Counted from the first letter of the stretch, positions 10,133 to 57,771 are shown. The stretch: 64,000 nt of DNA from Escherichia coli (GCF_011045215.1 NZ_CP049201.1); one strand, 5' to 3'. Notes: generated by a model not told the origin, from the sequence alone. A program made the numbers and translations.

Positions 10133-10264
10133 GGTTCTCCATCTCCTGAATGTGATAACGGTAACAAGTTTAGTTCATCTGACGGAGGGGGAAGGGATGG
10201 GAGAGAAAGGAGGCACTAACGGTTAAATAGCCCGATGAAAGGAATATCATCGGGCATAAGGCGA

Positions 10265-40205: not shown

Positions 40206-40733
40206 ATGCGTAACGGGAAATATGACGTTCTGAGTCCCCTGTATTCCGGTGAGCCGGTCAATGAGGCGGAAGTCCTGGGGGCGGCCGTCTGGTTGTGGAT
40301 GCACTCCCCCCTGCATCGTGATGCGCCACTGCATACCCTGCCGGACCTGCTGCTGCCGGTGATTAAGCACCGACAGTATGTGGTGGCAACAGAGCAGGGG
40401 CGACCGGTTTTCTTCATGAGCCAGGCCTGGCTCAGCCCGGAGGCAGAGGCGCGTTATCTTACGCAGCCGGCAATTCTCATGCCTCAGTCGGACTGGAACA
40501 GCGGCGACCGGATGTGGGTCTGTGACTGGATTGCCCCTTTTGGACATACCCCGGATATGAGTCGTCTTGTCCGGCAGGATATTTTTCCCCGTCTGTGCTG
40601 GCGTTCGCTGTACCACCGTGGGCAGCAGACCGGGTTGCGGGTGATGAATTTCCGGGGTGCACAGGTCAGTCGTGAAGAGGCGCGCCAGTGGCGTGTGCAG
40701 CACCCGCTTGCTGTGGATGTGCCGGAGAGATAA
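40206..40733 (+). CDS. cdiC: HlyC/RTX-family toxin-activating lysine acyltransferase (CdiC-like)
   Basis: Motifs WLWMHSPLHRD and GDRMWVCDWIAPFG closely parallel HlyC (WLWASSPLHRN, GDRKWFIDWIAPFG); 175 aa. Confidence 0.8.
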   Translation: MRNGKYDVLSPLYSGEPVNEAEVLGAAVWLWMHSPLHRDAPLHTLPDLLLPVIKHRQYVVATEQGRPVFFMSQAWLSPEAEARYLTQPAILMPQSDWNSGDRMWVCDWIAPFGHTPDMSRLVRQDIFPRLCWRSLYHRGQQTGLRVMNFRGAQVSREEARQWRVQHPLAVDVPER

Positions 40734-40748
40734 GTCAGGTTTATCAGA

Positions 40749-43700
40749 ATGAACAAAAATTGTTACCGCATTATTTTTAACAAAGCCCGGGGAATGCTGA
40801 TGGTGGTGGCAGATATTGCCCGTTCCGGTCGCGCCGGTGCATCACCCTCCTCCCGTACAGGATATCCACGCAGGCAACGTATCTGCCGTGTCACATCGCT
40901 TGCATTCTCCCTGTGGCTGGCCTCGGGGATGGTGCATTCTGTCAGTGCTGCAGGCATTGTCGCAGACCATGGCGCACCGGGGCATCAGCAGCCCACGATT
41001 ACGCAGACAGCCAGCGGCATTCCTCAGGTCAATATCCAGACACCTTCTGCAGGTGGGGTATCGCACAATACTTACAGTCAGTTTGATGTCAGTCATCAGG
41101 GTGTCATTCTGAATAACTCGCATAAAAATGTGCAGACCCAACTGGGCGGCATGGTTGCCGGTAACCCGTGGCTGGCGAAGGGAGAGGCCCGAATCATTCT
41201 TAATGAAGTGAACAGTCGCAATCCCAGCCAGTTGAACGGTTTTGTTGAGGTTGCCGGGAAAAAGGCGCAGGTGGTGATTGCGAACCCGGCCGGCATCAGT
41301 TGCGACGGGTGCGGTTTTATTAATGCGAACCGGGCCACGCTGACCACGGGGCAGCCTCAGATGAAAAACGGCAGTCTGACCGGATTCAGTGTTGAACGTG
41401 GTGAGATTCAGATTACGGGCAAAGGGATGGATGCCTCGCGCACGGATTATACCGATATCATTGCCCGGTCTGTGAAGATTAATGCGGGTATCTGGGCGCA
41501 GGACCTGAAAGTGACCACCGGACGTAACAATGTGGATATTGCACACGGGCAGACTGAGAAAAAAGCCGCTGATGCCTCTTCGCAGCCACAGGTGGCGCTG
41601 GATGTGTCCAGCCTTGGTGGAATGTATGCCGGAAAAATTCGCCTTGTCGGTACGGAAACGGGGGTGGGTGTTCGTAACGCCGGTCATATTGGTGCGCAGG
41701 CAGGGGCGGTTACCCTGACGGCTGACGGACGAATTGAAAACAGTGGCAGTATCAGTGCGAAAACGGATGTGCATCTGGTGACAACCCGGGAGCTGCATAA
41801 CAGTGGTTCTGTTTATGCGGGGCAGGATACGCAGATACAGAGTGATGGTGTATTCACCCATACAGGCTCTGTGGCATCACGTCGCAACACCCGGATTCAG
41901 ACAGCGCGTCTGACCGGCGGTGAGCGGAGTCTGCTGGCCGCCGGGGTGAAAGATGACGGACGTCTGGCGGCAGCGGGCAACCTGACTGTCAGTACCACCG
42001 GCGAACTGGCGGCACACGGACAGGTTCTGTCCGGTGGGGACATGCAACTGAAGGGGCAGGGGCTGGATTTAAGCAACAGCCGGATACAGGGACAACATAC
42101 TGAGCTGGATGCAGGCAGCGGAAATCTGTTCACGCAAAATGCGCAACTGAGTGCCGGTACGCTTTCCGCCCGGACTGCCGGGCAGTTCAGCAATAATGAC
42201 GGCACGATAAATGCCGACACACTGCAGATATCAGCACAGAGCCTGTCAAACCACAGGGGTAAACTGATTCAGACGGGAACAGGGGATTTTTCACTGAACC
42301 TGCCGGGAGGTGTGGATAACCGGGAAGGGCTGCTTGCGGCAAATGGCGCGGTGCGCCTGGATGCACTGAGCCTTGATAATCGCAGGGGGAAAGTGCAGGC
42401 GGCGCAGTCAGGTAGTCTGCAGGTGAGGACAACCGGCGCCGTGGATAACCAGCAGGGAAGTCTGATTGCCAGCCGTGACATCCTGATTAATACACAGGCA
42501 CTGAATAACGACAACGGACTGATTTCAGCTGCTGCCGGAACGGGCAGGATAAAAACACAGCAGGCTGTCAGCAATACTGAGGGACGAATGGAGTCCGCCG
42601 GCAGGCTGGATATTTCGGCAGGGAGTCTGAATAACCACCAGGGTACGGTGGTGTCTGACGGGCTGTCCGTGACGCTGGATGGTGCGCTGGATAATACGTC
42701 CGGCAGACTGCTTTCACAGAAAACGCTGTCTGTGTCAGGCAGCGAACTGGTCTCTGATGATGGTCTGATTCAGTCCGGCAGTGACATGACGCTGGATGTA
42801 CAGGACGGGGTTCTCAGTAACCGGAACACGAAAACACGGGGTGGTATCAGCAGCGCCGGTACCCTGACAGTACGGGCCGGTATGCTGAATAACCAGCAGG
42901 GATTTATGGCGGGTCAGAAGGATATGACCCTGAACGCCGGAACGCTCGATAACCGTCAGGGCGTGCTGGGGAGTCAGGCGTCATTACAGATATCGTCAGG
43001 TACGCTGATGAACCAGAAAGGCGCACTGAAGGCCGGGACGGATATGTTGCTGAGTGGTGGCGATGTCAGTAATCAGGAAGGGACGCTTGCCGCCGGCGGG
43101 GACCTGAATGCGCACCTGAATGTGCTGGAAAATCAGCAGGGGACGGTGGTCAGCAACGGTAACAGCAGGCTGGATGTCACCCGCTCTGATAATCAGGGCG
43201 GCAGACTGGTGGCACAGCAGTCACTGACCCTTTCCTCGACGGATATCAGCAATGATGCAGGTGGTCTGATACAGAGCGGTGCCACACTGAATCTCCGTGC
43301 TGACACACTGAGCAACCGTAACAGTGGTGACCGGGGCGGGGTTATCAGTCAGGGCCCGATGACGCTGAATGCCGGCACACTGGACAGCACTGCCGGTGTG
43401 CTTTTGTCGGGAGATGCGCTGTCCCTGACTGCAGGCGTGGTTAACAATACATCCGGTCAGGTGGTGGCGAATGGTCAGATTGTGGCGACCGGTCTGCCCG
43501 GCCGGAACAGTCTGGCGCTGAACAATCAGTCCGGTCTTATTCAGGGGAAAGGCATCAGCATTAATAGCGCAGGCCGGACGCTGGATAACAGAGGGGGTAC
43601 GCTGAACAGCCTGCAGGAACTGACTGTCAGTACCGGAGCAATGGATAACCGGGGCGGGACCGTGGGGGCGAAAACGACAGCTGACCTGAGCACCACCTCG

Positions 43701-46700
43701 CTGGATAACCGTGAGGGTGGCCGGCTGGTCAGTGAAGGTGAACTCCGTCTGCATACGGGAGGCCTGCAGAACAGCCACGGACAGATACAGTCTGTGGGCG
43801 ACATTCTGTTCGACAGTGTACGGGGCGTTGTGGACAACGTCTCTGGTCTGATTCGCAGTGGTTCTGCCATTACGCTGAACGCCCTGCAGTTTATCAATCG
43901 CCACACGCAGAATACCGGCCAGGGGCTGGAAGCGCAGACAATACACATCACGACGCAGGACCTTGATAACCAGGAGGGCAGTATTCTGGCAGACAGGGCG
44001 CTTACGGTTATGGCAGACAGGACGCTCAGTAATAATGATGGCGTGCTCTCTTCCGGCGCGACATTGTCTGTCAGTGGCCGTCAGCTGGCGTTTTCGAACC
44101 GTGACGGCGTGGTTAAGGCCGGGCAGTCAGTCTCTGTGGATGTCGGTCAGCTTGGTGGTGACGGGAAACTGCTTTCGCCGGGCGATATAACGCTGAAAAG
44201 TAACACAGCGTTCAGTAACAGTGGTCAGACCATTGCAAACGGAAACCTTACGCTTTCCGTTAATGGCGATGTCTCTAATACCGGCAGCCTGCTGGCAGGC
44301 AGCCGGCTTGACCTGAACAGCATCCGCCTTGAAAACACAGAGAAAGGTGAAATCAGTGCCGGGCAGACCTGGCTTAACGTGACGGACACACTGCTGAACC
44401 GTGGGCTGATTGACGGGAAATATACGCATCTTCAGGCGAACACCCTGACGAATTCCGGTACCGGGCGAATCTACGGCGATGCTGTTGGTGTCAGCGCTGC
44501 CACATTTAATAATCTGGATGAAAATGGCGTGGCGGCGACGCTGGCCGGACGTGAGCGTGTGGACCTGGGGGTACAGACCCTGAATAACCGGACGCACAGC
44601 CTGATTTACAGTGCAGGTGATATGCATATCGGTGGCATGCTGGATGCGAATGGCGCCGCCACGGGGAAAGCCGGTGTACTGAATAATCACAGTGCCACGA
44701 TTGAAGCCGCCGGTTCCCTGACACTGAGTGCCGGGCAAATCAATAACGTCAATGACCATTTCACCACGGAGCGCGTGGTGGTCTCCACGGAAAAGGTGAC
44801 TGAGTATCAGCATCGCGGGTCAGATGTCCGCTGGAATGCAAAAGATGAGGGGGTGTTCATTGATAACAACTCCTCTGATGGACTGCTGAACCTGAACACG
44901 CCGGATGATACCGGACATAACAACGACCGGTTCACAAAATATGAATACACCCGTACCGTGGAGGAAACCCGGGTAAAAGACTCCGACCCGGGGAAAATAC
45001 TGTCCGGTGCCGGCATGACGGTTGTGGCAGACAAACTGCTTAATGACAAGAGCCAGGTGGTTGCAGGTGGTCTGCTGGATATGCAGGCCGGTGATGTGGA
45101 AAACGTCAGTGTCAGCGGAGAGCGCCATGTTACTGATAAAGGGACATCCACATATTATTACCGGATAAAAAGAAAAAATAAAAATGACAGGCAGGGGGAA
45201 AGAATTTCCCCTTACGAGCCGCCCCCCGTCATTCAGACCATCACGCTGAAGCCGGGAGAGCTCACCAGCCACGGACAGGTTCAGGGCAGCCAGGTCACGC
45301 TTTCTCCCCTGAAGCCACAGGGAACGGATGTACAGACAGGACTGACCGGAAATGTGGATGCGACAGTAGCCGTTACTGACCGGATACCGCTTCGCCCGGT
45401 GGTGTCAGCCGGTGAACCGGTCATTCTGTTGCCGGGGCAGCAGTTTGAAGTCAGCGCACCTCAGGGCAGTATCCATGTTGCCGGGCCGGATACCCGTCTG
45501 CCGGACAGCAGCCTGTTTAAAACAAATCCGGCAGTGAATGTGCCATATCTGGTTGAAACGGACCCGCGTTTTACGAACCAGAAGACGTGGCTGGGCAGTG
45601 ATTACATGCAGAAGGCGTTTTCTCAGAACGGGGATAACATGCTCAAACGCCTGGGGGATGGTTTTTACGAACAGCGTCTGATTCGTGAGCAGGTTGTCGC
45701 TCTGACCGGGCAACGGTACCTGGACGGATACAGTAATGATGAAGAGCAGTTTAAGGCGTTAATGGATGCGGGTATTGCATTTGGTAAGCAATACAACCTG
45801 ACACCAGGTGTGGCGCTGACTGCTGAGCAGATGGCGTTACTGACCGGTGATATTGTCTGGCTGGTTAACACCACGGTGACACTGCCGGACGGCAGCACGC
45901 AGACGGTTCAGGTACCTCAGGTGTATGCCCGTGTAAAACCCGGTGATGTGAACAGTGCCGGTGCGCTGATTGCCGGCAGGGACATGGTGATGAAGCTGGA
46001 TGGTGACCTGTTTAACAGCGGTAAACTGGCCGGGAAGCAGGCCGTGCAGCTCAGTGCAGAAAACATTCACAACCAGGCCGGCACCATTCAGGGAGCAAAT
46101 GTCAGCCTGACGGCCCGGACGGATATTAACAGTACCGGCGGGCTGCTGCAGGCCACGGACAGCCTGCTGGCGATGGCCGGACGGGATATCAGTCTGACCA
46201 CCACCACCCGTACGGCACAGCGCGACGCCGGGCAGAACCATTTTGAACGTACCAGTATCGACAGTGTGGCCGGCGTGTATGTGCAGAACGACCAGGGAAG
46301 ACTGGTGCTGCAGGCCGGACGGGATATGAATCTGACGGCGGCAACGGTGGTGAATCAGGGTAAGGACAGCCTGACACAACTCAGTGCCGGCAGGGATATG
46401 ACGCTTTCCACGGTGACCACATCCGCGCAGGACAATATTACCTGGGATAAAAATAATCGTCTGTCGCAGGGCGTCACACAGAATACGGGCAGCACACTTG
46501 CCGGTAACGGTGATGTCACGCTGACCGCCGGACGGGATATGACGTCACAGGCGGCATCGCTGTCAGCTCAGAAAGGCCTGGCCCTGATGGCGGGTCATGA
46601 CGTGACGCTGACCGGTGCACAGAATACCCGCTCGCTGGATGAATACCATAAAGTGACCGGCAACAGCGGGATGTTATCGAAAACCACCACTACCACGCAT

Positions 46701-49700
46701 GATGTCACTGACCGCCGGACCATGACGGGCAGTGAACTGAACGGGGATACGGTCAGTATCGGTGCCGGACATAATCTGAACGTCACGGGCAGCAGTGTGG
46801 CCGGGGATAACCGTGTCTCCCTGGCTGCCGGAAATAACCTGAGTATCGGAACGCTGACAGAAAGCAACCGTGAAACACACCTGAAACAGGAGAAAAAATC
46901 CGGACTGATGAGCTCCGGAGGTGTGGGATTCAGCGTGGGCAGCCAGAGTCTGAAGGTCACGGACACCGCAACAGACACCACGCAGAAAGGCAGCACGGTG
47001 GGGAGTGTTCACGGTGATGTTTCCCTTCAGGCAGGTAACCGGTTGACCGTCAACGGCTCTGACCTGATTGCCGGCAGGGACATGGCACTCAGTGGTAAGG
47101 AGGTCAGCATTACCGCCGCCACTGACCGGCATGTGCAGACACATACGGTGGAGCAGAAAACCTCCGGTCTGACGCTTGCCCTGTCCGGCACAGCGGGCAG
47201 CGCCCTGAACACGACGGTGGAGACCGTACAGGCGGCGAAATCTGCCGGAAACAGCCGGCTTGAAGCCCTGCAGGGGGTGAAGGCCGCGCTCTCGGGGGCT
47301 CAGGCCGTGCAGGCCGGACGACTGGCAGAAGCACAGGGCAACCAGAAAGAGAATAACAATACCGTGGGTATCAGCCTCTCTTACGGCAGCCAGTCTTCGA
47401 AATCAGAACAGCAGTCAGAGCAGACGGTGGCGAAGGGCAGTACACTGACCGCAGGTAATAACCTCAGTATTCAGGCCACCGGCTCCGGCGTGAAGGGCGT
47501 GGATGGTGACCTGACGATACAGGGCGGTCAGATAAAGGCCGGGAACAACGTTCTGCTGCAGGCAAACCGTGACGTGAATCTGGTATCAGCAGAAAACACG
47601 TCAAAGCTGGAAGGAAAGAACACATCCAGTGGTGGCAGCGTGGGTGTCGGTATCGGTGTGGGGCCCGGAGGGCCTGGTTTCAGTCTGTCAGCCAGCGCAA
47701 ACCAGGGTAAGGGCAGTGAAAAAGGCAACGGTACCACCCATACAGAAACCACGGTGGATGCGGGAAACCGGCTGACCATTATCAGCGGGCGGGACACCAC
47801 GCTTACCGGCGCGCAGGCTGGCGGTGAAACGGTGAAAGTGGATGCCGGTCGTCATCTGACACTGACCAGTGAGCAGGACAGTGACCGTTATGACAGTAAG
47901 CAGCAGAATGCCAGCGCCGGAGGCAGCTTCACTTTCGGGTCCATGAGCGGTTCGGCGAGTGTGAACCTCAGCCGGGATAAAATGCACAGTAACTACGACA
48001 GTGTACAGGAGCAGACGGGGATTTTTGCCGGCAGGGGCGGGTTTGATGTCACCACCGGACAGCATACGCAACTGAACGGTGCGGTGATTGCGTCCACGGC
48101 AACGGCAGATAAAAACAGGCTGGATACCGGCACACTGGGCTTCAGTGACACTGAAAACCGGGCTGACTTTAAAACGGAACATCAGAGTGCAGGGCTCAGT
48201 ACCGGTGGCAGTGTTGCCGGAAATTTCCTGGGGAACATGGCAAACAATCTGCTGGTCGGTGCAAATCATGAAGGCCATGCGGACAGTACCACGCAGTCGG
48301 CTGTGTCTGCCGGGAATATCACTATCCGGGATACACAGAGCCAGAAACAGGATGTGGCAGACCTGAACCGTGACGTTGCGCATGCAAACCAGACGCTGTC
48401 CCCCATCTTTGACAGGGAAAAAGAGCAGCAGCGGTTGCAGCAGGCGCAACTCATTGGTGAGATTGGTAACCAGGTGGCAGATATTGCCAGAACGGAAGGA
48501 CAGATAGCCGGTGAGAAAGCGAAGCGGGACCCGGCAGCACTGAATCAGGCCCGCGCAGAGCTTGAGGCAGCAGGAAAACCGTACACGGAACAGGATGTGG
48601 CACAGCGGGCCTACAATAACGGTATGGCAGCCTCCGGTTTTGGAACGGGAGGCAAATACCAGCAGGCGATACAGGCCGCAACGGCAGCGGTACAGGGACT
48701 GGCCGGCGGTAATCTGAGTGCAGCCCTGGCAGGTGGTGCAGCGCCGTATATTGCTGAAATTATCAAACAGACCACCCCGGACGGTGCGGGGCGTGTGGCA
48801 GCTCATGCAGTAGTGAATGCCGCCCTGTCTCTGGCACAGGGTAAGAATGCCCTTGCCGGTGCTGCAGGTGCAGCCACCGGCGAGGTGGTGGGAATGATAG
48901 CCACACAGATATACGATAAATCGGTGAGTGAACTGAGTGAGACAGAGAAACAGACGGTCTCCACGCTGGCAACGGTTGCTGCCGGCCTGGCCGGTGGTCT
49001 GGTGGGAGACTCGGGGGCTTCAGCGGTAGCCGGCGCACAGTCAGGTAAGACGACTGTTGAGAATAATTATCTTAGCGTGTCTGAAAAGACAGAGCTTGAG
49101 ATAGCAAAACAGAAGCTTAAAAACAGTAAAGATCCGGCAGAGCGTGAAAAGGCACAGCAGAAATATGATGCATTGCTTGAAAAAGATATCAGCAGTGATA
49201 AGGCAGTAATCGCTGCGTGCAGTAACGGACAGGCAGCCAGCGCAGCTTGTGCCGGTGAAAGACTGAAGGTTATTGCAGCTAAAGGAGGTTATGAAACCGG
49301 ACACTACAATAACCAAGTCAGCGATATGTATCCGGATGCTTACGGGCAGATAGTAAACCTGCTGAATATCACCAGTGTTGATGCACAAAATCAACAACAG
49401 GTGAAGGATGCGATGGTGAACTATGCCATGGTGCAGTTTGGGGTCGATAGGGCGACGGCACAGGCATACGTTGAAACTTATGATGGAATGAAAGTTGTAG
49501 CTGCTTCGATGGCACCAGTAATAGGTGCTGCGGCGGCCAGTAAGATAGAAGTTCTGGCTGGTAAACAACGCTTGTCTAATAGTTTCGAGGTTAGCTCACT
49601 TCCAGATGCAAATGGGAAAAATCACATCACGGCTGTAAAAGGTGATGCTAAAATACCTGTCGATAAGATTGAACTATATATGCGTGGTAAAGCTTCTGGT

Positions 49701-50069
49701 GACCTTGATTCTTTGCAAGCAGAATATAATTCTTTAAAAGATGCAAGGATTAGCAGCCAAAAAGAATTTGCAAAAGATCCAAACAATGCTAAAAGGATGG
49801 AAGTATTAGAAAAACAAATCCATAATATTGAGCGTTCTCAAGATATGGCTCGTGTATTAGAACAAGCAGGTATAGTGAATACTGCCAGTAATAACAGCAT
49901 GATAATGGATAAGTTATTGGACTCAGCTCAGGGGGCTACGTCTGCAAATAGAAAAACATCTGTTGTTGTATCAGGGCCTAACGGTAACGTAAGGATTTAT
50001 GCTACATGGACAATATTACCTGATGGCACGAAAAGACTTTCAACTGTTAATACGGGGACATTCAAATGA
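40749..50069 (+). CDS. cdiA: Contact-dependent inhibition exoprotein CdiA (3106 aa) with VENN-delimited C-terminal toxin
   Basis: Extended signal peptide MNKNCYRIIFNKARGMLMVVADIA, TPS domain (ANPAGISCDGCGF), long FHA-type repeat tracts, VENN at 49056-49067, AT-rich C-terminal 333 aa. Confidence 0.9.
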   Translation: MNKNCYRIIFNKARGMLMVVADIARSGRAGASPSSRTGYPRRQRICRVTSLAFSLWLASGMVHSVSAAGIVADHGAPGHQQPTITQTASGIPQVNIQTPSAGGVSHNTYSQFDVSHQGVILNNSHKNVQTQLGGMVAGNPWLAKGEARIILNEVNSRNPSQLNGFVEVAGKKAQVVIANPAGISCDGCGFINANRATLTTGQPQMKNGSLTGFSVERGEIQITGKGMDASRTDYTDIIARSVKINAGIWAQDLKVTTGRNNVDIAHGQTEKKAADASSQPQVALDVSSLGGMYAGKIRLVGTETGVGVRNAGHIGAQAGAVTLTADGRIENSGSISAKTDVHLVTTRELHNSGSVYAGQDTQIQSDGVFTHTGSVASRRNTRIQTARLTGGERSLLAAGVKDDGRLAAAGNLTVSTTGELAAHGQVLSGGDMQLKGQGLDLSNSRIQGQHTELDAGSGNLFTQNAQLSAGTLSARTAGQFSNNDGTINADTLQISAQSLSNHRGKLIQTGTGDFSLNLPGGVDNREGLLAANGAVRLDALSLDNRRGKVQAAQSGSLQVRTTGAVDNQQGSLIASRDILINTQALNNDNGLISAAAGTGRIKTQQAVSNTEGRMESAGRLDISAGSLNNHQGTVVSDGLSVTLDGALDNTSGRLLSQKTLSVSGSELVSDDGLIQSGSDMTLDVQDGVLSNRNTKTRGGISSAGTLTVRAGMLNNQQGFMAGQKDMTLNAGTLDNRQGVLGSQASLQISSGTLMNQKGALKAGTDMLLSGGDVSNQEGTLAAGGDLNAHLNVLENQQGTVVSNGNSRLDVTRSDNQGGRLVAQQSLTLSSTDISNDAGGLIQSGATLNLRADTLSNRNSGDRGGVISQGPMTLNAGTLDSTAGVLLSGDALSLTAGVVNNTSGQVVANGQIVATGLPGRNSLALNNQSGLIQGKGISINSAGRTLDNRGGTLNSLQELTVSTGAMDNRGGTVGAKTTADLSTTSLDNREGGRLVSEGELRLHTGGLQNSHGQIQSVGDILFDSVRGVVDNVSGLIRSGSAITLNALQFINRHTQNTGQGLEAQTIHITTQDLDNQEGSILADRALTVMADRTLSNNDGVLSSGATLSVSGRQLAFSNRDGVVKAGQSVSVDVGQLGGDGKLLSPGDITLKSNTAFSNSGQTIANGNLTLSVNGDVSNTGSLLAGSRLDLNSIRLENTEKGEISAGQTWLNVTDTLLNRGLIDGKYTHLQANTLTNSGTGRIYGDAVGVSAATFNNLDENGVAATLAGRERVDLGVQTLNNRTHSLIYSAGDMHIGGMLDANGAATGKAGVLNNHSATIEAAGSLTLSAGQINNVNDHFTTERVVVSTEKVTEYQHRGSDVRWNAKDEGVFIDNNSSDGLLNLNTPDDTGHNNDRFTKYEYTRTVEETRVKDSDPGKILSGAGMTVVADKLLNDKSQVVAGGLLDMQAGDVENVSVSGERHVTDKGTSTYYYRIKRKNKNDRQGERISPYEPPPVIQTITLKPGELTSHGQVQGSQVTLSPLKPQGTDVQTGLTGNVDATVAVTDRIPLRPVVSAGEPVILLPGQQFEVSAPQGSIHVAGPDTRLPDSSLFKTNPAVNVPYLVETDPRFTNQKTWLGSDYMQKAFSQNGDNMLKRLGDGFYEQRLIREQVVALTGQRYLDGYSNDEEQFKALMDAGIAFGKQYNLTPGVALTAEQMALLTGDIVWLVNTTVTLPDGSTQTVQVPQVYARVKPGDVNSAGALIAGRDMVMKLDGDLFNSGKLAGKQAVQLSAENIHNQAGTIQGANVSLTARTDINSTGGLLQATDSLLAMAGRDISLTTTTRTAQRDAGQNHFERTSIDSVAGVYVQNDQGRLVLQAGRDMNLTAATVVNQGKDSLTQLSAGRDMTLSTVTTSAQDNITWDKNNRLSQGVTQNTGSTLAGNGDVTLTAGRDMTSQAASLSAQKGLALMAGHDVTLTGAQNTRSLDEYHKVTGNSGMLSKTTTTTHDVTDRRTMTGSELNGDTVSIGAGHNLNVTGSSVAGDNRVSLAAGNNLSIGTLTESNRETHLKQEKKSGLMSSGGVGFSVGSQSLKVTDTATDTTQKGSTVGSVHGDVSLQAGNRLTVNGSDLIAGRDMALSGKEVSITAATDRHVQTHTVEQKTSGLTLALSGTAGSALNTTVETVQAAKSAGNSRLEALQGVKAALSGAQAVQAGRLAEAQGNQKENNNTVGISLSYGSQSSKSEQQSEQTVAKGSTLTAGNNLSIQATGSGVKGVDGDLTIQGGQIKAGNNVLLQANRDVNLVSAENTSKLEGKNTSSGGSVGVGIGVGPGGPGFSLSASANQGKGSEKGNGTTHTETTVDAGNRLTIISGRDTTLTGAQAGGETVKVDAGRHLTLTSEQDSDRYDSKQQNASAGGSFTFGSMSGSASVNLSRDKMHSNYDSVQEQTGIFAGRGGFDVTTGQHTQLNGAVIASTATADKNRLDTGTLGFSDTENRADFKTEHQSAGLSTGGSVAGNFLGNMANNLLVGANHEGHADSTTQSAVSAGNITIRDTQSQKQDVADLNRDVAHANQTLSPIFDREKEQQRLQQAQLIGEIGNQVADIARTEGQIAGEKAKRDPAALNQARAELEAAGKPYTEQDVAQRAYNNGMAASGFGTGGKYQQAIQAATAAVQGLAGGNLSAALAGGAAPYIAEIIKQTTPDGAGRVAAHAVVNAALSLAQGKNALAGAAGAATGEVVGMIATQIYDKSVSELSETEKQTVSTLATVAAGLAGGLVGDSGASAVAGAQSGKTTVENNYLSVSEKTELEIAKQKLKNSKDPAEREKAQQKYDALLEKDISSDKAVIAACSNGQAASAACAGERLKVIAAKGGYETGHYNNQVSDMYPDAYGQIVNLLNITSVDAQNQQQVKDAMVNYAMVQFGVDRATAQAYVETYDGMKVVAASMAPVIGAAAASKIEVLAGKQRLSNSFEVSSLPDANGKNHITAVKGDAKIPVDKIELYMRGKASGDLDSLQAEYNSLKDARISSQKEFAKDPNNAKRMEVLEKQIHNIERSQDMARVLEQAGIVNTASNNSMIMDKLLDSAQGATSANRKTSVVVSGPNGNVRIYATWTILPDGTKRLSTVNTGTFK

Positions 50070-50551
50070 TAAATGTGAATAGTACCGCAAAGGATATTGA
50101 AGGTTTAGAAAGTTACCTAGCTAATGGCTATGTAGAGGCTGACTCTTTTAACGACCCAGAGGATGATGCGTTAGAGTGTCTCAGTAATTTATTAGTTAAA
50201 GATTCGAGGGGGGGGCTGTCATTTTGTAAAAAAATACTTAATTCAAATAACATTGATGGTGTTTTTATTAAAGGTTCGGCGCTGAATTTCTTATTATTGT
50301 CAGAACAGTGGTCTTACGCCTTTGAGTATTTGACAAGCAATGCGGATAATATAACTCTTGCAGAGCTTGAAAAGGCGCTTTTCTATTTTTACTGTGCAAA
50401 AAATGAGACAGATCCTTATCCTGTACCAGAGGGTTTATTCAAAAAACTGATGAAAAGATATGAAGAACTGAAAAATGACCCTGATGCAAAATTTTATCAT
50501 CTTCATGAAACGTACAATGATTTTTCAAAAGCTTATCCTCTGAATAATTAG
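50066..50551 (+). CDS. cdiI: Putative CdiI immunity protein for the main CdiA-CT
   Basis: 161-aa AT-rich ORF; start overlaps cdiA stop (ATGA at 50066-50069). Confidence 0.6.
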   Translation: MINVNSTAKDIEGLESYLANGYVEADSFNDPEDDALECLSNLLVKDSRGGLSFCKKILNSNNIDGVFIKGSALNFLLLSEQWSYAFEYLTSNADNITLAELEKALFYFYCAKNETDPYPVPEGLFKKLMKRYEELKNDPDAKFYHLHETYNDFSKAYPLNN

Positions 50552-50780: not shown

Positions 50781-51716
50781 GTTGAGAATAACTTTTTGAC
50801 CGCGGATCAGATCGATAGCTTTGCGGCAAAAGCAAAAGGGTGTGAAGTACGTGGCGACTGCAAACAGATTGTAAAGGAGATGGAGGAGCTCAGCCTTAAG
50901 CAACAGCAGGAAATGATAGCTGTCTGCGCAACAAACCCTGCGGCCTGCAAAGAGAAATTCGGCGATATACCAGCTAAAGGAATGCTTGTACGAGAAGCGA
51001 TAGATCGTGTGTTAGGTGCAGATGTACCGTCTGCAATGAAGAATGATATGTCTTCGTTGTTAGCTCAGCAGATCGAAGCGGAAGGTGTTGTTACCAGTAC
51101 TGAATTTGCCTGTCAGCTACAAAATCGTTACGGTATAGACAAGCAACAGGCTGAAATCCTTGCCGTCGCAGCATTGGGAGCAGTGACAGGTGGGATGGGG
51201 AAATCAGGTACTTCAACGGTAACTAAAAACATCGTTGTGGTTAATTCAGGTAAGAAAGGGGCCTGGAATCAAGCAATGAATAAGCCGGAACCGAATACCG
51301 TTTATAAGGTCGATGGAAATAAAACATACCAGACTGATGCATTGGGAAGAACTAGTTCAGTTGAGGGTATACTAGTTGCTTCGAAAAGCGACAGAAACAC
51401 TTATCAGCAATGCAAGGCCGGGAAATGTGGTAGCTCTGGTGATGAAGGTGGTCATTTAATTGCCAGTATTTTTAATGGTCCTGGCGAAAAACTCAATCTT
51501 GTTCCTATGGATGGCAACCTGAATAAAGGTGTATGGAAACAGATGGAAAACACATGGGCTAATGCTTTGAAAGATGGCAAACAAGTTAATGTTAAAATAG
51601 AACCTGTTTACACTGGGGAGAATAAGCGTCCTGAAAGCTTTAGTGTAACATACTCTATTGATGGAGGCCGTCCTGTTATCAAAGACATCAGCAACACACC
51701 TGGAGGGGTAAAATGA
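50781..51716 (+). CDS. Orphan cdiA-CT module 1 (VENN-prefixed toxin domain, activity unknown)
   Basis: VVENN at 50781-50792 without upstream CdiA body; about 310 aa follow, with a His-containing segment GDEGGHLIASIFNG. Confidence 0.6.
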   Translation, partial: VENNFLTADQIDSFAAKAKGCEVRGDCKQIVKEMEELSLKQQQEMIAVCATNPAACKEKFGDIPAKGMLVREAIDRVLGADVPSAMKNDMSSLLAQQIEAEGVVTSTEFACQLQNRYGIDKQQAEILAVAALGAVTGGMGKSGTSTVTKNIVVVNSGKKGAWNQAMNKPEPNTVYKVDGNKTYQTDALGRTSSVEGILVASKSDRNTYQQCKAGKCGSSGDEGGHLIASIFNGPGEKLNLVPMDGNLNKGVWKQMENTWANALKDGKQVNVKIEPVYTGENKRPESFSVTYSIDGGRPVIKDISNTPGGVK

Positions 51717-52051
51717 ACGAATTAGATGATCTGCATAATAAAATAGGTCAGTTATTAGTGGATGCCGGTCCTGCTAATGCGATGAAGATCATTGCTCGTG
51801 CTAAATTATCACTAGATGGTGAGTCATGTGAGTATGAGTATGATTATCTTGATCAAGAGGGAGATGAAGATTGGTTCGTTCCTGATAAGTTAGCCAGTCA
51901 CGATCTTAGGCTACTGTTAGTTAAAATGAGGGATTTTTACATCCGAAATAATATGACTAACGGGAAACCAGCATGGATAGGTTGTGAAATAATCGTTGAT
52001 ATACCAGAAGAAAAAATTAGCATAAACTTTCAATATGATGATGAACTATGA
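51713..52051 (+). CDS. Orphan cdiI module 1 (putative immunity protein)
   Basis: 112-aa acidic ORF; start overlaps the orphan toxin stop (ATGA). Confidence 0.55.
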   Translation: MNELDDLHNKIGQLLVDAGPANAMKIIARAKLSLDGESCEYEYDYLDQEGDEDWFVPDKLASHDLRLLLVKMRDFYIRNNMTNGKPAWIGCEIIVDIPEEKISINFQYDDEL

Positions 52052-52215
52052 TCTAGGCCCCGGGATCTCCACAATGCCCATAGCGTGTACGGTGGAACAA
52101 AGCGTGTCGGGGAAAAAATCGGCGGGCAGCGAAACGCAACAGAATAAAGGTTGTAACAAACTGAAAGAAAAGGGGAAAATCGTCTCCTTCACCACAATGC
52201 GCGTCAGAGAGAGTT

Positions 52216-52710
52216 GTTATTGAGAATAACTTCTTAAGCTCTAAAGAAGCCCGACAATTCGATGAAGAACTGGTGGAATGCAAGGCTTCTGGTGGAGACT
52301 GTAAATCTGTTATTCAGAAATATCTGGATATCAGCAACCAAAACAGTAAGGAACTGGCTGAAGCCTGTACTGGCGGTGGTGTTGCATGCGTAACTTGGGA
52401 GGAATTAATTCAGGGAAGGACTAATGTTGCTAATGTTGCTAATGATCCACATTCCGGACAATTCAGACTGGATGAAAAACTTAAGGATCCCGATGCGGTC
52501 GCTATTGTGAATTATCTCAACGGCTCAGACCTCAAGTTCCTTAAAGATAATATTACAGAGGGGGATCGCTTACTGTCTGTTATCAGCGATCCAACTTCAT
52601 GGCCTGTTGCTGTAATGGGAGGAAAGGCCTTTATCACCAATGCAGTCAATAATACTAAAGAACAGCTTATAGCTGTGGGGGTTGGTGTTGGATTAGGGGC
52701 CGGTATTTAG
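52216..52710 (+). CDS. Orphan cdiA-CT module 2, N-terminal part (VIENN-prefixed)
   Basis: VIENN at 52216-52230, then Cys-containing region ECKASGGDCKSVIQKY similar to module 1; ends at TAG 52708-52710. Confidence 0.5.
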   Translation, partial: VIENNFLSSKEARQFDEELVECKASGGDCKSVIQKYLDISNQNSKELAEACTGGGVACVTWEELIQGRTNVANVANDPHSGQFRLDEKLKDPDAVAIVNYLNGSDLKFLKDNITEGDRLLSVISDPTSWPVAVMGGKAFITNAVNNTKEQLIAVGVGVGLGAGI

Positions 52711-52751
52711 CAACAGGCAGCGTTGCCCTGTTACCGGGGAGTGCCCAGGCT

Positions 52752-53231
52752 ATGTGGTTACTTGGTGCCGGGACAAATGCCGGGATGCAGTATGCAGATA
52801 GTGGTGAAATAAACCCGGTCAACTCAGTGGCAGCAGGCTGGATAAATGTGATAACCATGGGGCAGGGCTGGAAAGGGACAATAGCCTGGAATGCGGCAGG
52901 TGGAGCATTAACCAACGCCATAAACGGAGATGATCCTCTTACTGGGGCGATTACAAATGGAGCGGGGGCCGGGTTTGGATATGGGGTTGGCAATTATGTG
53001 GTCAAGCCTGCTGCAAATACAATCGGTAAATGGATAACCGGTGGCTGGAATCCTAAATTCGATCCGACTCTACTAAAATATACTGAAGTTAAAGGGCAGT
53101 TAGGTCTATCTAAAGAAATGGTACCGAGTAAGATCCCTGGTGCTGTGGGTAATGCGGGTGGTAGTTTATCATCTGAGTTTGGAAGCTCCATTATCCAGAA
53201 AAAGAAAGATGCAATGGAGGCTGGGAAATGA
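52752..53231 (+). CDS. Glycine-zipper-rich protein, probable C-terminal toxin part of orphan module 2 (different frame)
   Basis: 159-aa ORF with Gly-rich hydrophobic stretch (GAITNGAGAGFGYGVGNYVV); stop overlaps the next small gene. Confidence 0.45.
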   Translation: MWLLGAGTNAGMQYADSGEINPVNSVAAGWINVITMGQGWKGTIAWNAAGGALTNAINGDDPLTGAITNGAGAGFGYGVGNYVVKPAANTIGKWITGGWNPKFDPTLLKYTEVKGQLGLSKEMVPSKIPGAVGNAGGSLSSEFGSSIIQKKKDAMEAGK

Positions 53232-53461
53232 AGAACCTTCTTATTGTTGTCTTATTAATGACTGTATGCATATTTGGTTTGTTTATAGTCGGTTCGATTT
53301 TTTATCTTCTTCTGAAGATATTTATGTATTTTTATTTGAATGCCCCAATATCATTTGAAGTTTTTCAGTTTTCTAGACTGTTAAAAATGAGTGTGTATGG
53401 GGGGGGGATCTTAGGCTTGGGTATTGGTTTGTTGCATATCATGAAAGTTAAGGGGTTCTGA
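53228..53461 (+). CDS. Small two-helix membrane protein, putative immunity protein of orphan module 2
   Basis: 77-aa very AT-rich ORF with two hydrophobic helices; ATGA overlap with upstream ORF. Confidence 0.5.
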   Translation: MKNLLIVVLLMTVCIFGLFIVGSIFYLLLKIFMYFYLNAPISFEVFQFSRLLKMSVYGGGILGLGIGLLHIMKVKGF

Positions 53462-53464
53462 AAT

Positions 53465-53605
53465 GTTGTTGAGAATAACTACCTCAGCTACGACGAGGTA
53501 CATGCTTTTGACAGAGAAATGACTGTCTGTCGTAAAGCTGATCGTGAATGCGGAGATATTCAGAACAAGTATGCTGTAATTAATGCTGATAACCGGTTGA
53601 AATAG
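53465..53605 (+). pseudogene. Orphan cdiA-CT module 3 remnant (VENN plus 41 codons)
   Basis: VVENN at 53465-53479 followed by a short Cys-containing peptide and stop at 53603-53605; no immunity gene follows. Confidence 0.5.
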
Positions 53606-53726
53606 CATATTAATGTAGCTGTTGTTCCTCTGACGTATCAACCACCCTCAGAGTGATTGACATCAGATAGAAATATTAGCATCATTATTTCATCAAATAA
53701 CTCTCATTAACAATGGAGATAATAAA

Positions 53727-54284
53727 ATGAAAAAACTGTCAGTTCTTTCAGCCATCATATTATCAGTGGCAAGCGGTTCCGTGCTGGCTGACAACCATTC
53801 GTTTTCTGTCGGTTATGCACAGAGTAAAATTCAGAACTTCAAGAATATTAGAGGGGTAAACCTGCAGTACAGGTATGAATGGGACTCCCCGGTCAGTATT
53901 ATGGGCAGTTTCTCCTGGATGAAAGGGGATGGTAATCAGGAATATCATTCATATGGCGATTCAATTAAAAACCAGGTTGATGCAAAATATTATTCCTTAC
54001 TGACCGGCCCCGTATGGCGCATTAACGATTATATGTCACTGTATGCGGCTGGCGGCGTGGCGCATGTTAAAGCTGATGGTAAAACAGCATGGACAAACGT
54101 TGATGGTTATTTCGCCAGAGAAAATATTTCGAAAAAATCCACATCTTTTGCTTATGCTGCCGGGGTAATGATCAATCCGACAAGTAATATTACAATTAAT
54201 GCCGGATATGAAGGAACCAGAGCAAAACTTGGCGATAATTATTCCATTAATGGATTCAATATTGGCGTGGGTTATCGCTTTTAA
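53727..54284 (+). CDS. Ail/Lom/OmpX/PagC-family outer-membrane beta-barrel protein
   Basis: 185-aa ORF with signal peptide, alternating aromatic/hydrophilic strands, terminal ...GVGYRF. Confidence 0.75.
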   Translation: MKKLSVLSAIILSVASGSVLADNHSFSVGYAQSKIQNFKNIRGVNLQYRYEWDSPVSIMGSFSWMKGDGNQEYHSYGDSIKNQVDAKYYSLLTGPVWRINDYMSLYAAGGVAHVKADGKTAWTNVDGYFARENISKKSTSFAYAAGVMINPTSNITINAGYEGTRAKLGDNYSINGFNIGVGYRF

Positions 54285-54852
54285 TAAAGTAGAATGAACA
54301 TAATAGCGTTCATATCTGTTTTTTTACTTAACCAAGCGGTACATATATGTACCGCTTGTCTGTAATAAATCAATACCGCCTGTAACGGTACGAATGACTA
54401 TTGCCATGAACGCAATCATGTTTCTGTTGTTGCCGAACATCGTTCTGTGCAGAGGCTTTTGGTGTGCCTTCCATCAGCCAGCGTAATGATTCTCAGGCAA
54501 TTTTGTATCGTTTCGGTTAACTCATACTGATGCGTCGGTGGCGGGGCATCCGAACGATCGCAGTCTGACAATGGTCGATTTATTTTGCTTGCGCAGGGGC
54601 GAGCGCCAGGCTGGTATCGGAGGCGGGTTCTGAAGGACTGAGTCGGGTAATTGCGTCAGGTCGCGAAGTACTGACACGGGTACTGGTGGCAGGTGATGAA
54701 GTGCAGCCCCGGGAATGGCTCCGGGCTGACTCAGGTTCTGATTCGCTGTCAGCCCGCGTGGTGGCTGGCCTGGCTCATTTCCTGTCGTCAGGCGTTCAAC
54801 TCCCGACTGCAGATTATGGCACGCTGCAAGAACACCTGACGACAGGTATCAC

Positions 54853-56355
54853 TCACCCGGAGAAGGTAAATCCCTCAAGGGGCAGCAACTCTGCCAGTCG
54901 CTCCTCTGGCCATTCCGGCAGACGCGCCAGGACGTCTGTCAGCCAGGCATGTGGCTCCAGACCATTACGTTTTGCCGTTTCCAGAAGGCTCATTATCTGT
55001 GCCGCGCGGTTTCCGGCCATCAGTGAACCGGCGAACAACCAGGCCTTTCGTCCCATAACGACCGGGCGGATAGCACGCTCGCAGATATTGTTGTCCAGGG
55101 GCACGGCTCCGTCACCCAGGAAGCAGCTCAGTTCATCGCGCCGGTTCAGGATATAATTAATCGCTTTGTTTAGTGGTCCGTCGGGCGGACAGCACGGCTC
55201 CTGCTCTTCAAGCCAGGCAAACAGGTCATTCACTATCGGCCGGGAATACCGTTGTCGCCATTGCCGTATTTTTTCCACAGGACGTTCACGGATGAACTTC
55301 TCAATGCGATAAAGACCCGCGATTTTTCTCAGCGCCATGGCTGCACGGGGCTCCCTGCTGGCCTTATACAGACTGGCGAAGCCGCGTCTTGCGTGGCTCC
55401 AGCAACAGGCAGATGTAATACCGGGGTCATTATCCGCCAGAGATTTGTACACGCTGTATCCGTCACTCACCAGCGTGCCACCACGCCAGCCCTGCAGCCA
55501 GGCCTCAGGATATCTGAGGGCCCGTCCGGTCTGCGAGTCAAAACAGACGACCGGCGGGCCGCTTCTTTCTCCGCTGACGTAAGCCCACAGCCAGCCGGAG
55601 CAGGATTTACCGCCTTTCCGGGTATCAAGGAGCCTCAGGGACGTTTCATCTGCATGAATAACATCCCGTGTCAGAAGCTCGTGGCGTAACAATTTTGCCA
55701 GCGGGGCCAGTGCAGCGCCAGCAACACCGACCATATCCGCCATTGTACTGACGGGGAGCTCCACACCCATTCGGGAGAAAATGTGCTGCTGGCGATACAG
55801 GGGCAGATGGTCGGTATATTTGCTGATGACAACCTGTGCGATGACCGATGGCTCAACAGCACTTTTCGGAAGGATATGTGCCGGCATTTTTCCGCTGAAC
55901 ACTTTCTCACAGCAGGGACAGCTGTACTGCGGGCGGATATAGCGGTGGACCACAACCTGTGCGGGGATATATTCCAGCTTCTCGCTGACTTCATCGCGAA
56001 TGAAGTGCAGGGGGGCATCACAGTCAGGACAACGTTCCTCAGCTGGCGGGATAACCTTTTCAGCACGGGGAAGATGTGAAGGCAAGGGCTTACGAACAGG
56101 ACGTGTTGTTTTTTCTTCGTCCCCGGTCTGAGGAAGCAGTTTGTCCAGACGCGCCGAGATTTCTGCGATATCCGCGTCAACATCCTCTTCGAACAGGGAA
56201 CGCTGCATCCCGGCCAGCGATTCGCATTTTTTACCAAAACGCTGCTGGCGTGCGAGCTTCATCTGCTCTTCCAGGATGCGGATACGGTTCTGAAGTTCTG
56301 CAATATTCCGGTCTTTTTCCAGCACCATATTTGCAAGGTTCTGACTCTCAGCCAT
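54853..56355 (-). CDS. IS66-family transposase TnpC
   Basis: 500-aa ORF; N-terminal leucine-zipper-like coiled coil, Cys-rich zinc-finger region (CPDCDAPL...CPCCE), DDE-type core. Confidence 0.8.
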   Translation of the reverse strand: MAESQNLANMVLEKDRNIAELQNRIRILEEQMKLARQQRFGKKCESLAGMQRSLFEEDVDADIAEISARLDKLLPQTGDEEKTTRPVRKPLPSHLPRAEKVIPPAEERCPDCDAPLHFIRDEVSEKLEYIPAQVVVHRYIRPQYSCPCCEKVFSGKMPAHILPKSAVEPSVIAQVVISKYTDHLPLYRQQHIFSRMGVELPVSTMADMVGVAGAALAPLAKLLRHELLTRDVIHADETSLRLLDTRKGGKSCSGWLWAYVSGERSGPPVVCFDSQTGRALRYPEAWLQGWRGGTLVSDGYSVYKSLADNDPGITSACCWSHARRGFASLYKASREPRAAMALRKIAGLYRIEKFIRERPVEKIRQWRQRYSRPIVNDLFAWLEEQEPCCPPDGPLNKAINYILNRRDELSCFLGDGAVPLDNNICERAIRPVVMGRKAWLFAGSLMAGNRAAQIMSLLETAKRNGLEPHAWLTDVLARLPEWPEERLAELLPLEGFTFSG

Positions 56356-56474
56356 GGCTTTTGCACCATGGCAATTGCCAGAGCGCGAAGCTGTTCAGGG
56401 TCACTGGTGGTACTGAGAAGCGAGATATCCATGCGGTGGATTATATGACATCACGCATGGATATTCATTATATT

Positions 56475-56876
56475 TCATTGAGTTATTGCGTTGCTCTGAG
56501 CATCTTCGGGTTCTTCCTGGTATACCCATTTTGCCAGGTCATGCCCTTTCACCTGTTGCCAGTCAACCCCACAGACCAGCCAGTGAAACTCATCCTGTGT
56601 GAGATGCCATGTGGCATCACCTTTCCGGGGCCAGCGGAAGCTTCCCCGGTGCAGTCGTCGGGTACACAGCCATACGCCATGTTTGTCCCACCGGAGAACT
56701 TTTATGCGGGAGCGGACTTTATTGGTGAAGACAAAAGCAGCACCGTCATGCCATGCAGCGTTAAGTTCGTTCTGGACGTACTGTGTCAGTGTGTCGATAC
56801 CCCGGCGCATATCGACGGGTTTTACGACCAGGAATACGTTATCAGGCGTCAGCATGGCGAAGAGCCCGGAAAACAT
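56475..56876 (-). CDS. IS66-family accessory protein TnpB (Orf2)
   Basis: 133-aa ORF (MLTPDNVFLVVKPVDMRRG...) between tnpA and tnpC. Confidence 0.7.
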   Translation of the reverse strand: MFSGLFAMLTPDNVFLVVKPVDMRRGIDTLTQYVQNELNAAWHDGAAFVFTNKVRSRIKVLRWDKHGVWLCTRRLHRGSFRWPRKGDATWHLTQDEFHWLVCGVDWQQVKGHDLAKWVYQEEPEDAQSNAITQ

Positions 56877-57171
56877 CGGTTAACTGAGAAGGCTGGCAGC
56901 ACATCCGGATACCTCCGGGAAGGAAAAGTGTGACAGGCTCATCCGACAATGGTCTGCCATCAGCCATACCGGGAGCGCCAGACACTGAAACTGGAATAAT
57001 TTCAGGTGCTCTGGCTCGTTTTTCGGCTTTTGCAACATCCTGCGGCCACTGGCGCAGGGATTTAAACGGAATGTCGTAAAGTTCACAGTACTGTTCACGG
57101 GTAAGGCCGCTTGCGCGCCATGCGGCAACGTGATGTTTTTTCTGATCAAGCGTCCATCGTATCCTGGGCAT
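56842..57171 (-). CDS. IS66-family accessory protein TnpA (Orf1)
   Basis: 109-aa ORF with HTH-like N-terminus, overlapping the tnpB start. Confidence 0.65.
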   Translation of the reverse strand: MPRIRWTLDQKKHHVAAWRASGLTREQYCELYDIPFKSLRQWPQDVAKAEKRARAPEIIPVSVSGAPGMADGRPLSDEPVTLFLPGGIRMCCQPSQLTDVFRALRHADA

Positions 57172-57288
57172 TGTTTACTCTCCACAGAAGGAAGTTATAC
57201 GAATACCGGAATGTTAATGAACAGAATATTTCTGTGAAGATAAGATCCCCGAAACGATACAATCATTAAATATGAACTGGAGGTACAA

Positions 57289-57771
57289 ATGAATAAATAC
57301 TTAATTATTTTATTTTTTATTGCTGACACTTCTAACGCTTCAGAAGCTATATCAAATAAGTACACAATAGATTCAGACAGTCAGTTAATATTATCGAATG
57401 GAAATATTAAGGCTGTTGGCAATGTACACGCTGTAAGCGGGGACATGACTATTGATGCAGATGAAGCTATTTATCATCGTGAAACCCCTGATAACACCTA
57501 TATAACTGCCACAGGGGATCCAATAAAATACAATGGGATAACAGAAGATGGCAAGCCGTTTTCAGGAAACTCGAAAAAGCTTAAATATACTCCCAAAACA
57601 GGAGAGGTGATCCTGACAGACGAAGCTTTTGTCCAACAGAGTGGAAATTCTCTGTCGGCCGAAGTAATAACATATAACACCATCACAAGAAAAATGACAG
57701 CCTCAGCAACTCCCGGTAAAAGAGTAAGGAGTGTGATTTATCCTGACAATATATCCCAGAATGAAAAATAA
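57289..57771 (+). CDS. Secreted LptA/OstA-N-like domain protein
   Basis: Signal peptide MNKYLIILFFIADTSNASEA, then repetitive beta-strand pattern resembling the LptA fold; AT-rich. Confidence 0.45.
   Translation: MNKYLIILFFIADTSNASEAISNKYTIDSDSQLILSNGNIKAVGNVHAVSGDMTIDADEAIYHRETPDNTYITATGDPIKYNGITEDGKPFSGNSKKLKYTPKTGEVILTDEAFVQQSGNSLSAEVITYNTITRKMTASATPGKRVRSVIYPDNISQNEK

Follow-up and report, generated by a model that had tools for sequence, protein, structure and literature searches.

The locus and its product

We analysed the gene at 53727–54284 on the plus strand of a window of 64,000 nt (the whole stretch of DNA that was analysed) from Escherichia coli (GCF_011045215.1, NZ_CP049201.1). 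The gene encodes a PagC-like outer-membrane protein and stands at the 3' end of a CDI locus, the order in the window being cdiB, cdiC, cdiA, cdiI, orphan toxin genes, the Ail gene and an IS66 element. The features of the window that are used below are as follows.

38457..40196, plus strand: cdiB, TpsB transporter (Pfam ShlB, 1.3e-109; POTRA_2; POTRA_3)
40206..40733, plus strand: cdiC, HlyC-family lysine acyltransferase (Pfam HlyC, 3.7e-32)
40749..50069, plus strand: cdiA effector, 3106 aa (from the ORF list; homologous CdiA in 26 related loci)
50066–50551, plus strand: cdiI, directly after cdiA
50796..53461, plus strand: orphan toxin/immunity array
50796–52051, plus strand: Endonuclease_NS_2 orphan with its immunity gene
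52273–53461, plus strand: second orphan with its immunity gene
53462..53606, plus strand: terminal VENN stub (translation NVVENNYLS...RLK and a stop), last relic of the CDI array
53645..54435, plus strand: module of ~790 bp (promoter, gene and 3' hairpins), ~94% identical to the copy on pUMNK88_Hly-type plasmids
53657..53685, plus strand: candidate sigma-70-like promoter (TTGACA, 17-nt spacer, CATCAT; 10/12 matches to the consensus)
53715..53718, plus strand: Shine-Dalgarno sequence GGAG, 8 nt before the ATG (read from the sequence; invariant in five alleles)
53727..54284, plus strand: Ail/Lom (PagC-like) outer-membrane beta-barrel gene, 185 aa, ATG start
53727–53789, plus strand: predicted signal peptide, with the mature protein at 53790–54281 (sequence reading, homolog conservation and AlphaFold model)
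54286..54322, plus strand: first 3' stem-loop with a run of seven T at its end, weak terminator candidate (RNA fold)
54333..54358, plus strand: perfect 26-bp palindrome, predicted RNA hairpin of 11–13 bp, no U-tract
54546..57255, minus strand: complete IS66-family element (tnpA/B/C), ~190 bp after the palindrome
57289..57771, plus strand: island-borne LptA-like gene with an LptD_N/OstA domain (Pfam LptD_N, 2.8e-18)

The upstream locus has the gene order that defines class IV, with an HlyC-family acyltransferase gene, the hallmark of these LPS-binding cdiBCAI loci (PMC8510554), between cdiB and cdiA. As the initial annotation had noted, the Ail/Lom gene comes directly after the orphan toxin array, whose last element is the VENN stub ending at 53606. 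The same stub is found upstream of the Ail gene in strains C5 and UMNF18, and homology starts at 53468 in C5 and at 53397–53405 in the porcine ETEC genomes. The second orphan toxin is divided over two ORFs (52273–52710 and 52752–53231) and is followed by an intact immunity gene (53228–53461); the split suggests a frameshift or stop inside the orphan.

On the other side of the gene, the IS66 element is missing from the corresponding spot in C5, and related IS66 ends border CDI arrays in several other strains. The LptA-like gene downstream of the IS66 element is present in C5 too. We considered it as a member of a conserved unit with the Ail gene and rejected it, as it is missing from all 74 loci of other genera described below and is therefore specific to the E. 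coli island; it is nevertheless curious to see an additional LPS-transport paralog beside an LPS-targeting CDI locus. In this type of island cdiB is immediately preceded by zorABCD, an anti-phage system of the type I Zorya kind (C5, locus L001, 1–4688), and in F7349 (locus L085, 9085–16949) the CDI array is followed by genes for type I restriction-modification and DarTG. Judged by these neighbours, the CDI locus of the C5/F7349 island type is embedded in a defence island.

According to the Pfam search, the protein matches PF06316 (Ail_Lom) with an E-value of 3.5e-23 (82.8 bits, cut-off 23), and the alignment runs over the full length (residues 5–185 against profile positions 7–199 of 199). Sequence matches in PDB include Yersinia Ail (3qra, 1.8e-23), phage Lom (9wso, 5.4e-19) and OmpX. 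The AlphaFold model, for which 28 homologs were the input, has a pLDDT of 86.3 and contains a signal helix and eight long strands (24–35, 40–50, 56–75, 78–98, 103–123, 129–149, 155–167 and 171–184) arranged as an eight-strand barrel. Foldseek places Ail (3qra) first among known structures (E-value 5.5e-15, target TM 0.82), followed by OmpX (1qj9). The HMM search thus agrees with the Ail/Lom family named in the initial annotation, and the matches to solved structures and the predicted fold back it. Outside E. coli, the closest relatives (60–67% identity) are chromosomal and come from Leclercia, Lelliottia, Cedecea and Atlantibacter; some of them are named 'putative virulence related protein PagC' by their sources.

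The N-terminus, as read directly from the sequence, is a classical Sec signal peptide (MKKLSVLSAIILSVASGSVLA, with DNH after the predicted cleavage site). The LADNH junction is kept across homologs, and the signal region appears as a low-confidence N-terminal helix in the AlphaFold model. The protein ends in ...GVGYRF, so that its last residue by sequence reading is Phe; among the 28 aligned homologs G182, Y183 and F185 are invariant and R184 is nearly so. The protein therefore combines a Sec signal peptide with a C-terminal aromatic beta-signal for BAM, as members of the Ail/Lom family do, and the small barrel with signal peptide and terminal aromatic residue that had been described at first is found again in the MKKLSVLSAIILSVASGSVLA-type N-terminus, the eight modelled strands and the final Phe. 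Variation among homologs clusters in the modelled extracellular loops 2 and 3, and the barrel strands and the C-terminal GYRF are conserved.

The reading frame is intact in every copy of the gene examined. Among five copies (window, C5, UMNF18, 08-00022 and pUMNK88_Hly, i.e. chromosomal, plasmid and 08-00022 alleles), dN/dS ranges from 0.034 to 0.094 with dS up to 0.26; on these ratios the gene is under strong purifying selection.

Three more specific assignments were tried. The Rck equivalog (NCBIfam NF011777) scores 153.1 bits (curated cut-off 258) and the OmpX equivalog (NF006917) scores 101.7 bits (curated cut-off 176), and orthology to Rck or OmpX was rejected because both scores are under the curated cut-offs. 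A phage Lom-type gene was rejected as well: the neighbours are CDI genes and IS elements, with no phage genes nearby and no lambdoid late region. On inspection by eye, neither a PhoP box nor a GTTTA-type direct repeat was seen in 53600–53727. By itself, then, this is a routine accessory outer-membrane protein gene, already labelled Ail/Lom by annotation pipelines, and a divergent member of a known family within a known type of island module.

Occurrence of the gene and its linkage to CDI genes

The allele was found in 30 of 5,426 complete E. coli genomes (27 chromosomal and 4 plasmid places), which sets it apart from a widespread core paralog, and the wider PagC-like group was found in 537 of the 5,426. 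Carriers of the allele are mostly porcine ETEC or O139:H1 strains, with some bovine strains. In addition, 11 conjugative plasmids in PLSDB carry a copy at ~94% identity. On pUMNK88_Hly this copy lies between a transposase fragment and vapBC, without CDI genes: as read from the translated flank, the left edge is a truncated IS256-family transposase frame (L002, ~7800–8000) that ends exactly where homology to the chromosome starts, and vapBC is on the right of the module. In the porcine ETEC strain UMNF18, the gene is in a tRNA-Phe (pheV) island just after an IS110-family element, and just the last ~320 bp of the CDI array are left upstream of it. In UMNF18 (L003, 16668–19048) the Ail gene and the pheV integrase are separated by an IS1-interrupted phosphoethanolamine transferase gene, a further envelope/LPS-modifying gene in the same island corner. 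The full order cdiB-cdiC-cdiA-cdiI-orphans-Ail is found in C5 and 08-00022, and apparently in 52F4. The orphan toxin at 52707–53611 occurs in other E. coli genomes without an Ail match. This patchy occurrence, including CDI-free copies on plasmids and in ETEC, indicates that the gene is accessory rather than core and that it can exist without CDI.

Using the Ail alignment as query, we scanned one genome per species (GTDB representatives) and obtained 74 loci in other Enterobacterales, which were searched with the CdiB, CdiC and CdiA of the window; those with at least 8 kb of sequence 5' of the homolog (60 loci) were taken as evaluable. (A blastn search with cdiB does not reach non-class-IV genes, which are too diverged at the DNA level.) Same-strand CDI genes (cdiB, cdiC or cdiA) are upstream of the Ail homolog in 26 of the 60 evaluable loci and in 4 of the 14 shorter ones, and three further loci contain orphan cdiI or CdiA-CT pieces. 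As an internal control, CDI genes were not seen downstream of Ail or on the opposite strand at any locus, except for the embedded case described next. The order cdiB-cdiC-cdiA-cdiI-Ail is found in Enterobacter, Lelliottia (with a gap of ~230 bp before Ail in locus L025), Huaxiibacter and Silvania. In three genomes the gene is embedded in the CDI operon as cdiB-cdiC-ail-cdiA-cdiI, with a gap of ~50 bp after cdiC: Mixta tenebrionis (L069, ail at 9983–10591), L093 (9133–9714) and L095 (10001–10585). The Ail proteins of L093 and L095 share 65% and 57% identity with that of L069, and L095 has a terminator-like hairpin with a T-run between ail and cdiA.

The CDI-linked Ail genes are spread over several clades of the Ail tree and lie in at least 10 unrelated downstream contexts, and Ail is kept even beside degenerate cdi loci. 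Where a species lacks CDI genes, Ail and the genes downstream of it are as in CDI-bearing species of its genus, and synteny breaks 130–200 bp 5' of Ail; these downstream genes are ordinary (LysR regulator, SDR, methyltransferase, amidohydrolase). Species of Lelliottia, Pantoea and Mixta without CDI genes still carry an Ail homolog. In Erwinia typographi two tandem Ail/PagC-like paralogs (L049, 5560–6120 and 6754–7308) are found 3' of a lone cdiB remnant.

Within E. coli, cdiC was found in 197 genomes, from which we inspected 10 cdiC loci picked from evenly spaced rows of the search. Seven of the 10 end with an OI-122-type Ail/Lom gene (RM7190, C8, 2014C-3097, RM10410, 158274-3, M19 and SHP24). 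The other three (F7349, GPEC349-628 and D10) have no Ail gene and have type I restriction-modification genes after the array, with IS elements in between in GPEC349-628 and D10. The 'pagC' of EDL933 OI-122 (region 8453–9573 of L005) and the CDI-linked copies, e.g. that of RM7190 (region 26299–27417 of L083), have the same TssE pseudogene upstream; downstream, a truncated NERD-domain gene in OI-122 takes the place of the 3'-5' exonuclease gene of the CDI-linked copies. Because of the common TssE pseudogene and the corresponding downstream position, OI-122 pagC appears to sit in the slot of these copies after loss of the CDI genes.

The initial annotation had proposed that the gene may ride along with the CDI module. 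Co-occurrence in 26/60 species loci and 7/10 E. coli cdiC loci, together with the three embedded cases, upholds the linkage; exclusivity does not hold, as the gene is CDI-free on pUMNK88_Hly-type plasmids and is accompanied by just a CDI relic in porcine ETEC. What emerges is a PagC-like barrel gene that is habitually last in LPS-directed CDI loci, and internal in three genomes, in Enterobacter, Lelliottia, Leclercia, Silvania, Pantoea, Erwinia, Tatumella, Mixta, Dryocola and E. coli. Accordingly, 'pagC' (OI-122, LAA module III), in wide use as a marker of STEC, may be the surviving end of a CDI locus and not an independent virulence gene.

Proposed role and rival readings

The best explanation, to which we give a probability of roughly 0.6, is that 53727–54284 is an intact PagC/Rck-like gene with its own transcription unit and a role in survival at the cell surface, and that it is a conserved 3' neighbour of class IV CDI genes, co-imported with them and of independent benefit. 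We infer that the precursor is exported by Sec and cleaved after VLA21, that BAM inserts the barrel via the C-terminal ...GYRF beta-signal, that the four extracellular loops of the eight-stranded barrel are its variable, ligand-facing part, and that the gene is expressed from the sigma-70-like promoter as a unit of its own, with its Shine-Dalgarno sequence and two 3' stem-loops, of which the palindromic hairpin would act at the RNA level. Going by Ail, Rck and PagC, it most likely helps the cell to withstand attacks on its outer membrane that come from the host or the environment, be it via complement resistance, adhesion or envelope robustness; the 'virulence or serum-resistance cargo' of the initial annotation is likewise a suggestion drawn from the family. 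The gene would be the conserved 3'-terminal neighbour of class IV (cdiB-cdiC-cdiA-cdiI) loci across Enterobacterales, in a position that is probably not accidental, and would have entered the E. coli island together with the CDI locus. It appears to keep a benefit of its own, since it survives where the CDI genes have been lost.

A tighter relation is conceivable, and we put it forward tentatively: the PagC-like protein could be a working accessory of class IV CDI (whose CdiA binds the LPS core and is lipidated by CdiC), conditioning the outer membrane against the lipidated CdiA tip of self or siblings, or promoting contact. This would be consistent with the same-strand adjacency in 26/60 species loci over at least 10 contexts with zero opposite-strand cases, with the retention of Ail beside degenerate cdi loci, and with the three cdiB-cdiC-ail-cdiA genomes, whose ail genes follow cdiC after ~50 bp and encode proteins that are 65% and 57% identical to that of L069. 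The multiple contexts and the embedded operons favour a function in CDI. Ail-family proteins are known for an intimate interaction with LPS. The class IV locus as published (CdiA-STEC4; Halvorsen et al. 2021) consists of four genes, cdiBCAI; the receptor of its CdiA is the LPS core, specifically phosphorylated HepI and HepII, and CdiC lipidates the receptor-binding domain of CdiA, the acylated residue of CdiA-STEC4 being Lys1467; CdiA inserts its acyl chain in a manner likened to polymyxin (PMC8510554). The same receptor is also displayed by the producer, how the producer handles it is not addressed in that paper, and Ail, OmpX and PagC are not mentioned there (PMC8510554); an LPS-associated barrel next door is an obvious candidate for coping with it. 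Literature searches for CDI together with Ail/Lom found no paper that links the two, and searches by the protein accessions found nothing.

Several observations speak against the accessory role. Cloned cdiBCAI-STEC4 alone is enough to inhibit targets up to 10^5-fold in E. coli K-12 (PMC8510554), and therefore the Ail gene is not essential for delivery. Three of the 10 sampled E. coli class IV loci are without the gene, purifying selection persists where CDI is absent, and CDI-less Lelliottia and Pantoea keep the gene with ordinary downstream genes, as would be seen, too, for a resident gene next to a hot spot of insertion. That cdiBCAI suffices, that three E. coli loci have no Ail gene and that the gene exists free of CDI all favour independence. 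It is accordingly a possibility of limited weight that the Ail/Lom protein is a fifth conserved class IV CDI component, encoded at the 3' end or between cdiC and cdiA, that adapts the outer membrane of the producer or stabilises contacts. If so, the 'pagC' virulence marker of E. coli OI-122 would be a leftover of such a CDI locus.

We think it unlikely that the adjacency is purely positional, i.e. that a resident gene flanks a hot spot for cdi islands and came into E. coli as a passenger with no role in CDI. The synteny break 130–200 bp 5' of the Ail start codon, seen between CDI-bearing and CDI-less species that share the same ordinary downstream genes (LysR regulator, SDR, methyltransferase, amidohydrolase), is what such a hot spot would leave, and the gene has its own promoter-like site and 3' hairpin. 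However, Ail and CDI genes are found paired in at least 10 downstream contexts that are unrelated to each other, the gene moved with the CDI genes into pheV-type islands of E. coli, and three genomes have the operon-embedded form; a single ancestral hot spot is therefore no explanation for the contexts, the joint transfer and the embedded operons taken together.

The reading we prefer, an independent gene conserved beside class IV CDI, includes signals at both ends of the transcription unit. The candidate promoter lies 42 nt 5' of the start codon, and the common 82 bp upstream differ between the window and the plasmid copy by one substitution and one indel, compared with 16% at synonymous sites. 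At the 3' end, the RNA fold of 54282–54400 has a z-score of -3.9. The initial annotation had reported a perfect 24-bp palindrome at 54337–54360; its perfection is confirmed (aagcggtacatatatgtaccgctt) and its position is corrected to 54334–54357, 3 nt to the left. The 26-bp palindrome occurs once in the window (0.00 expected, 100 shuffles). With a stem of -18.3 kcal/mol and the tail UCUGUAAUAAAUC, it was tried as an intrinsic terminator; the terminator scan made no call, and a canonical terminator was rejected because there is no U-tract. An integron attC site was rejected on inspection too, as ACTTAAC before the stem fits RYYYAAC and no GTTRRRY follows. The Rfam search of the palindrome gave sub-threshold noise only and no match.

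Comparison of alleles was more informative. Stem pair 4 of the hairpin is G-C in the window and C-G in both the 86% allele (L007) and the plasmid copy, and stem pair 7 is G-C in the window, G-U in the 86% allele (L007) and A-U in the plasmid copy. The hairpin is thus kept in three alleles via compensatory changes, with loops of 3 to 17 nt; the 86% allele, whose stem pairing was set by hand and with single-sequence folds, has a 15-nt insertion in the loop. Unrelated strong hairpins are found at the same place in the 79% allele and the OI-122-type allele. The palindrome most likely works at the level of RNA, as a hairpin that forms the 3' end or stabilises the transcript. Intrastrand templated repair, with no selection on the RNA, is another way in which symmetric changes in a palindrome can arise.

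It is rather improbable that the 26-bp palindrome is a DNA-level site, such as the binding site of a dimeric regulator or a target for recombination or insertion, instead of an RNA hairpin. The perfect symmetry, the AT-rich centre and the lack of a U-tract would suit such a site, as would the IS-related edges of the module (IS66 from 54546 and, on the plasmid, what reads as an IS256-like fragment). Against this, the pairing is conserved and the sequence is not (two covarying pairs), and the G-U intermediate is tolerable in RNA and not in a DNA site. The 15-nt loop insertion of the 86% allele, the unrelated hairpins of other alleles, the single copy in the window, the lack of an Rfam match and the missing attC inverse-core half (GTTRRRY) argue in the same direction.

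Finally, a decaying remnant or a phage Lom-type lysogenic-conversion gene is a highly implausible identity for 53727–54284: the gene does lie among IS elements and truncated toxin genes, and Lom is among its PDB sequence matches, but its frame is intact in every copy examined with dN/dS of 0.03–0.09, no phage genes flank it, and the Lom match (5.4e-19) is weaker than that of Ail (1.8e-23).

Comparison with known systems

Yersinia Ail (3qra) and E. coli OmpX (1qj8) are the nearest solved structures by sequence and fold. Identity over the structural alignment is 34–38%, and the window protein has longer loops 2 and 3. Ail and OmpX are not known as neighbours of CDI loci.

Salmonella Rck, the complement-resistance protein of the virulence plasmid, is alike in length (185 aa), in its eight-strand topology and in that the window gene has a plasmid-borne relative, and the Rck model is the best-scoring NCBIfam model for the window protein (153 bits). 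It is unlike in that identity to the pSLT-type Rck is 46% and that the sequences of loops 2 and 3 differ. Given the differing loops, the ligand specificity of Rck should not be assumed for the window protein, and given an identity of just 46%, serum resistance is not confidently transferable from Rck.

The closest parallel within E. coli is the pagC-like gene of OI-122 (Z4321), LAA module III and PAI ICL3 (ORF42). Module III (PAI ICL3) contains pagC (ORF42), tpsA (ORF43) and tpsB (ORF45), whose function was described by its authors as uncharacterised (PMC5539235; PMC10562709), so the adjacency of pagC and CDI genes in E. coli is already on record, descriptively. The two genes belong to the same family and size class and share one position, as the last gene 3' of a cdiB-cdiC-cdiA-cdiI array in pheV-type islands, and the window locus has the make-up of such a module (tpsB/tpsA with an adjoining pagC-like gene in a mosaic, IS-bounded island) with a divergent allele. 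The differences are in sequence (58% amino-acid and 66% DNA identity; 185 aa in the window and 191 aa in the OI-122 type), in the upstream neighbour (the VENN stub as compared to the TssE pseudogene), in the downstream neighbour (IS66 and the LptA-like gene as compared to a 3'-5' exonuclease) and in frequency, the window allele being much rarer (30 genomes as compared to about 500 for the OI-122 type).

As compared to the published class IV system cdiBCAI, the window locus has the same defining cdiB-cdiC-cdiA-cdiI order and the HlyC-family acyltransferase; the difference is that a fifth conserved neighbouring gene is documented here.
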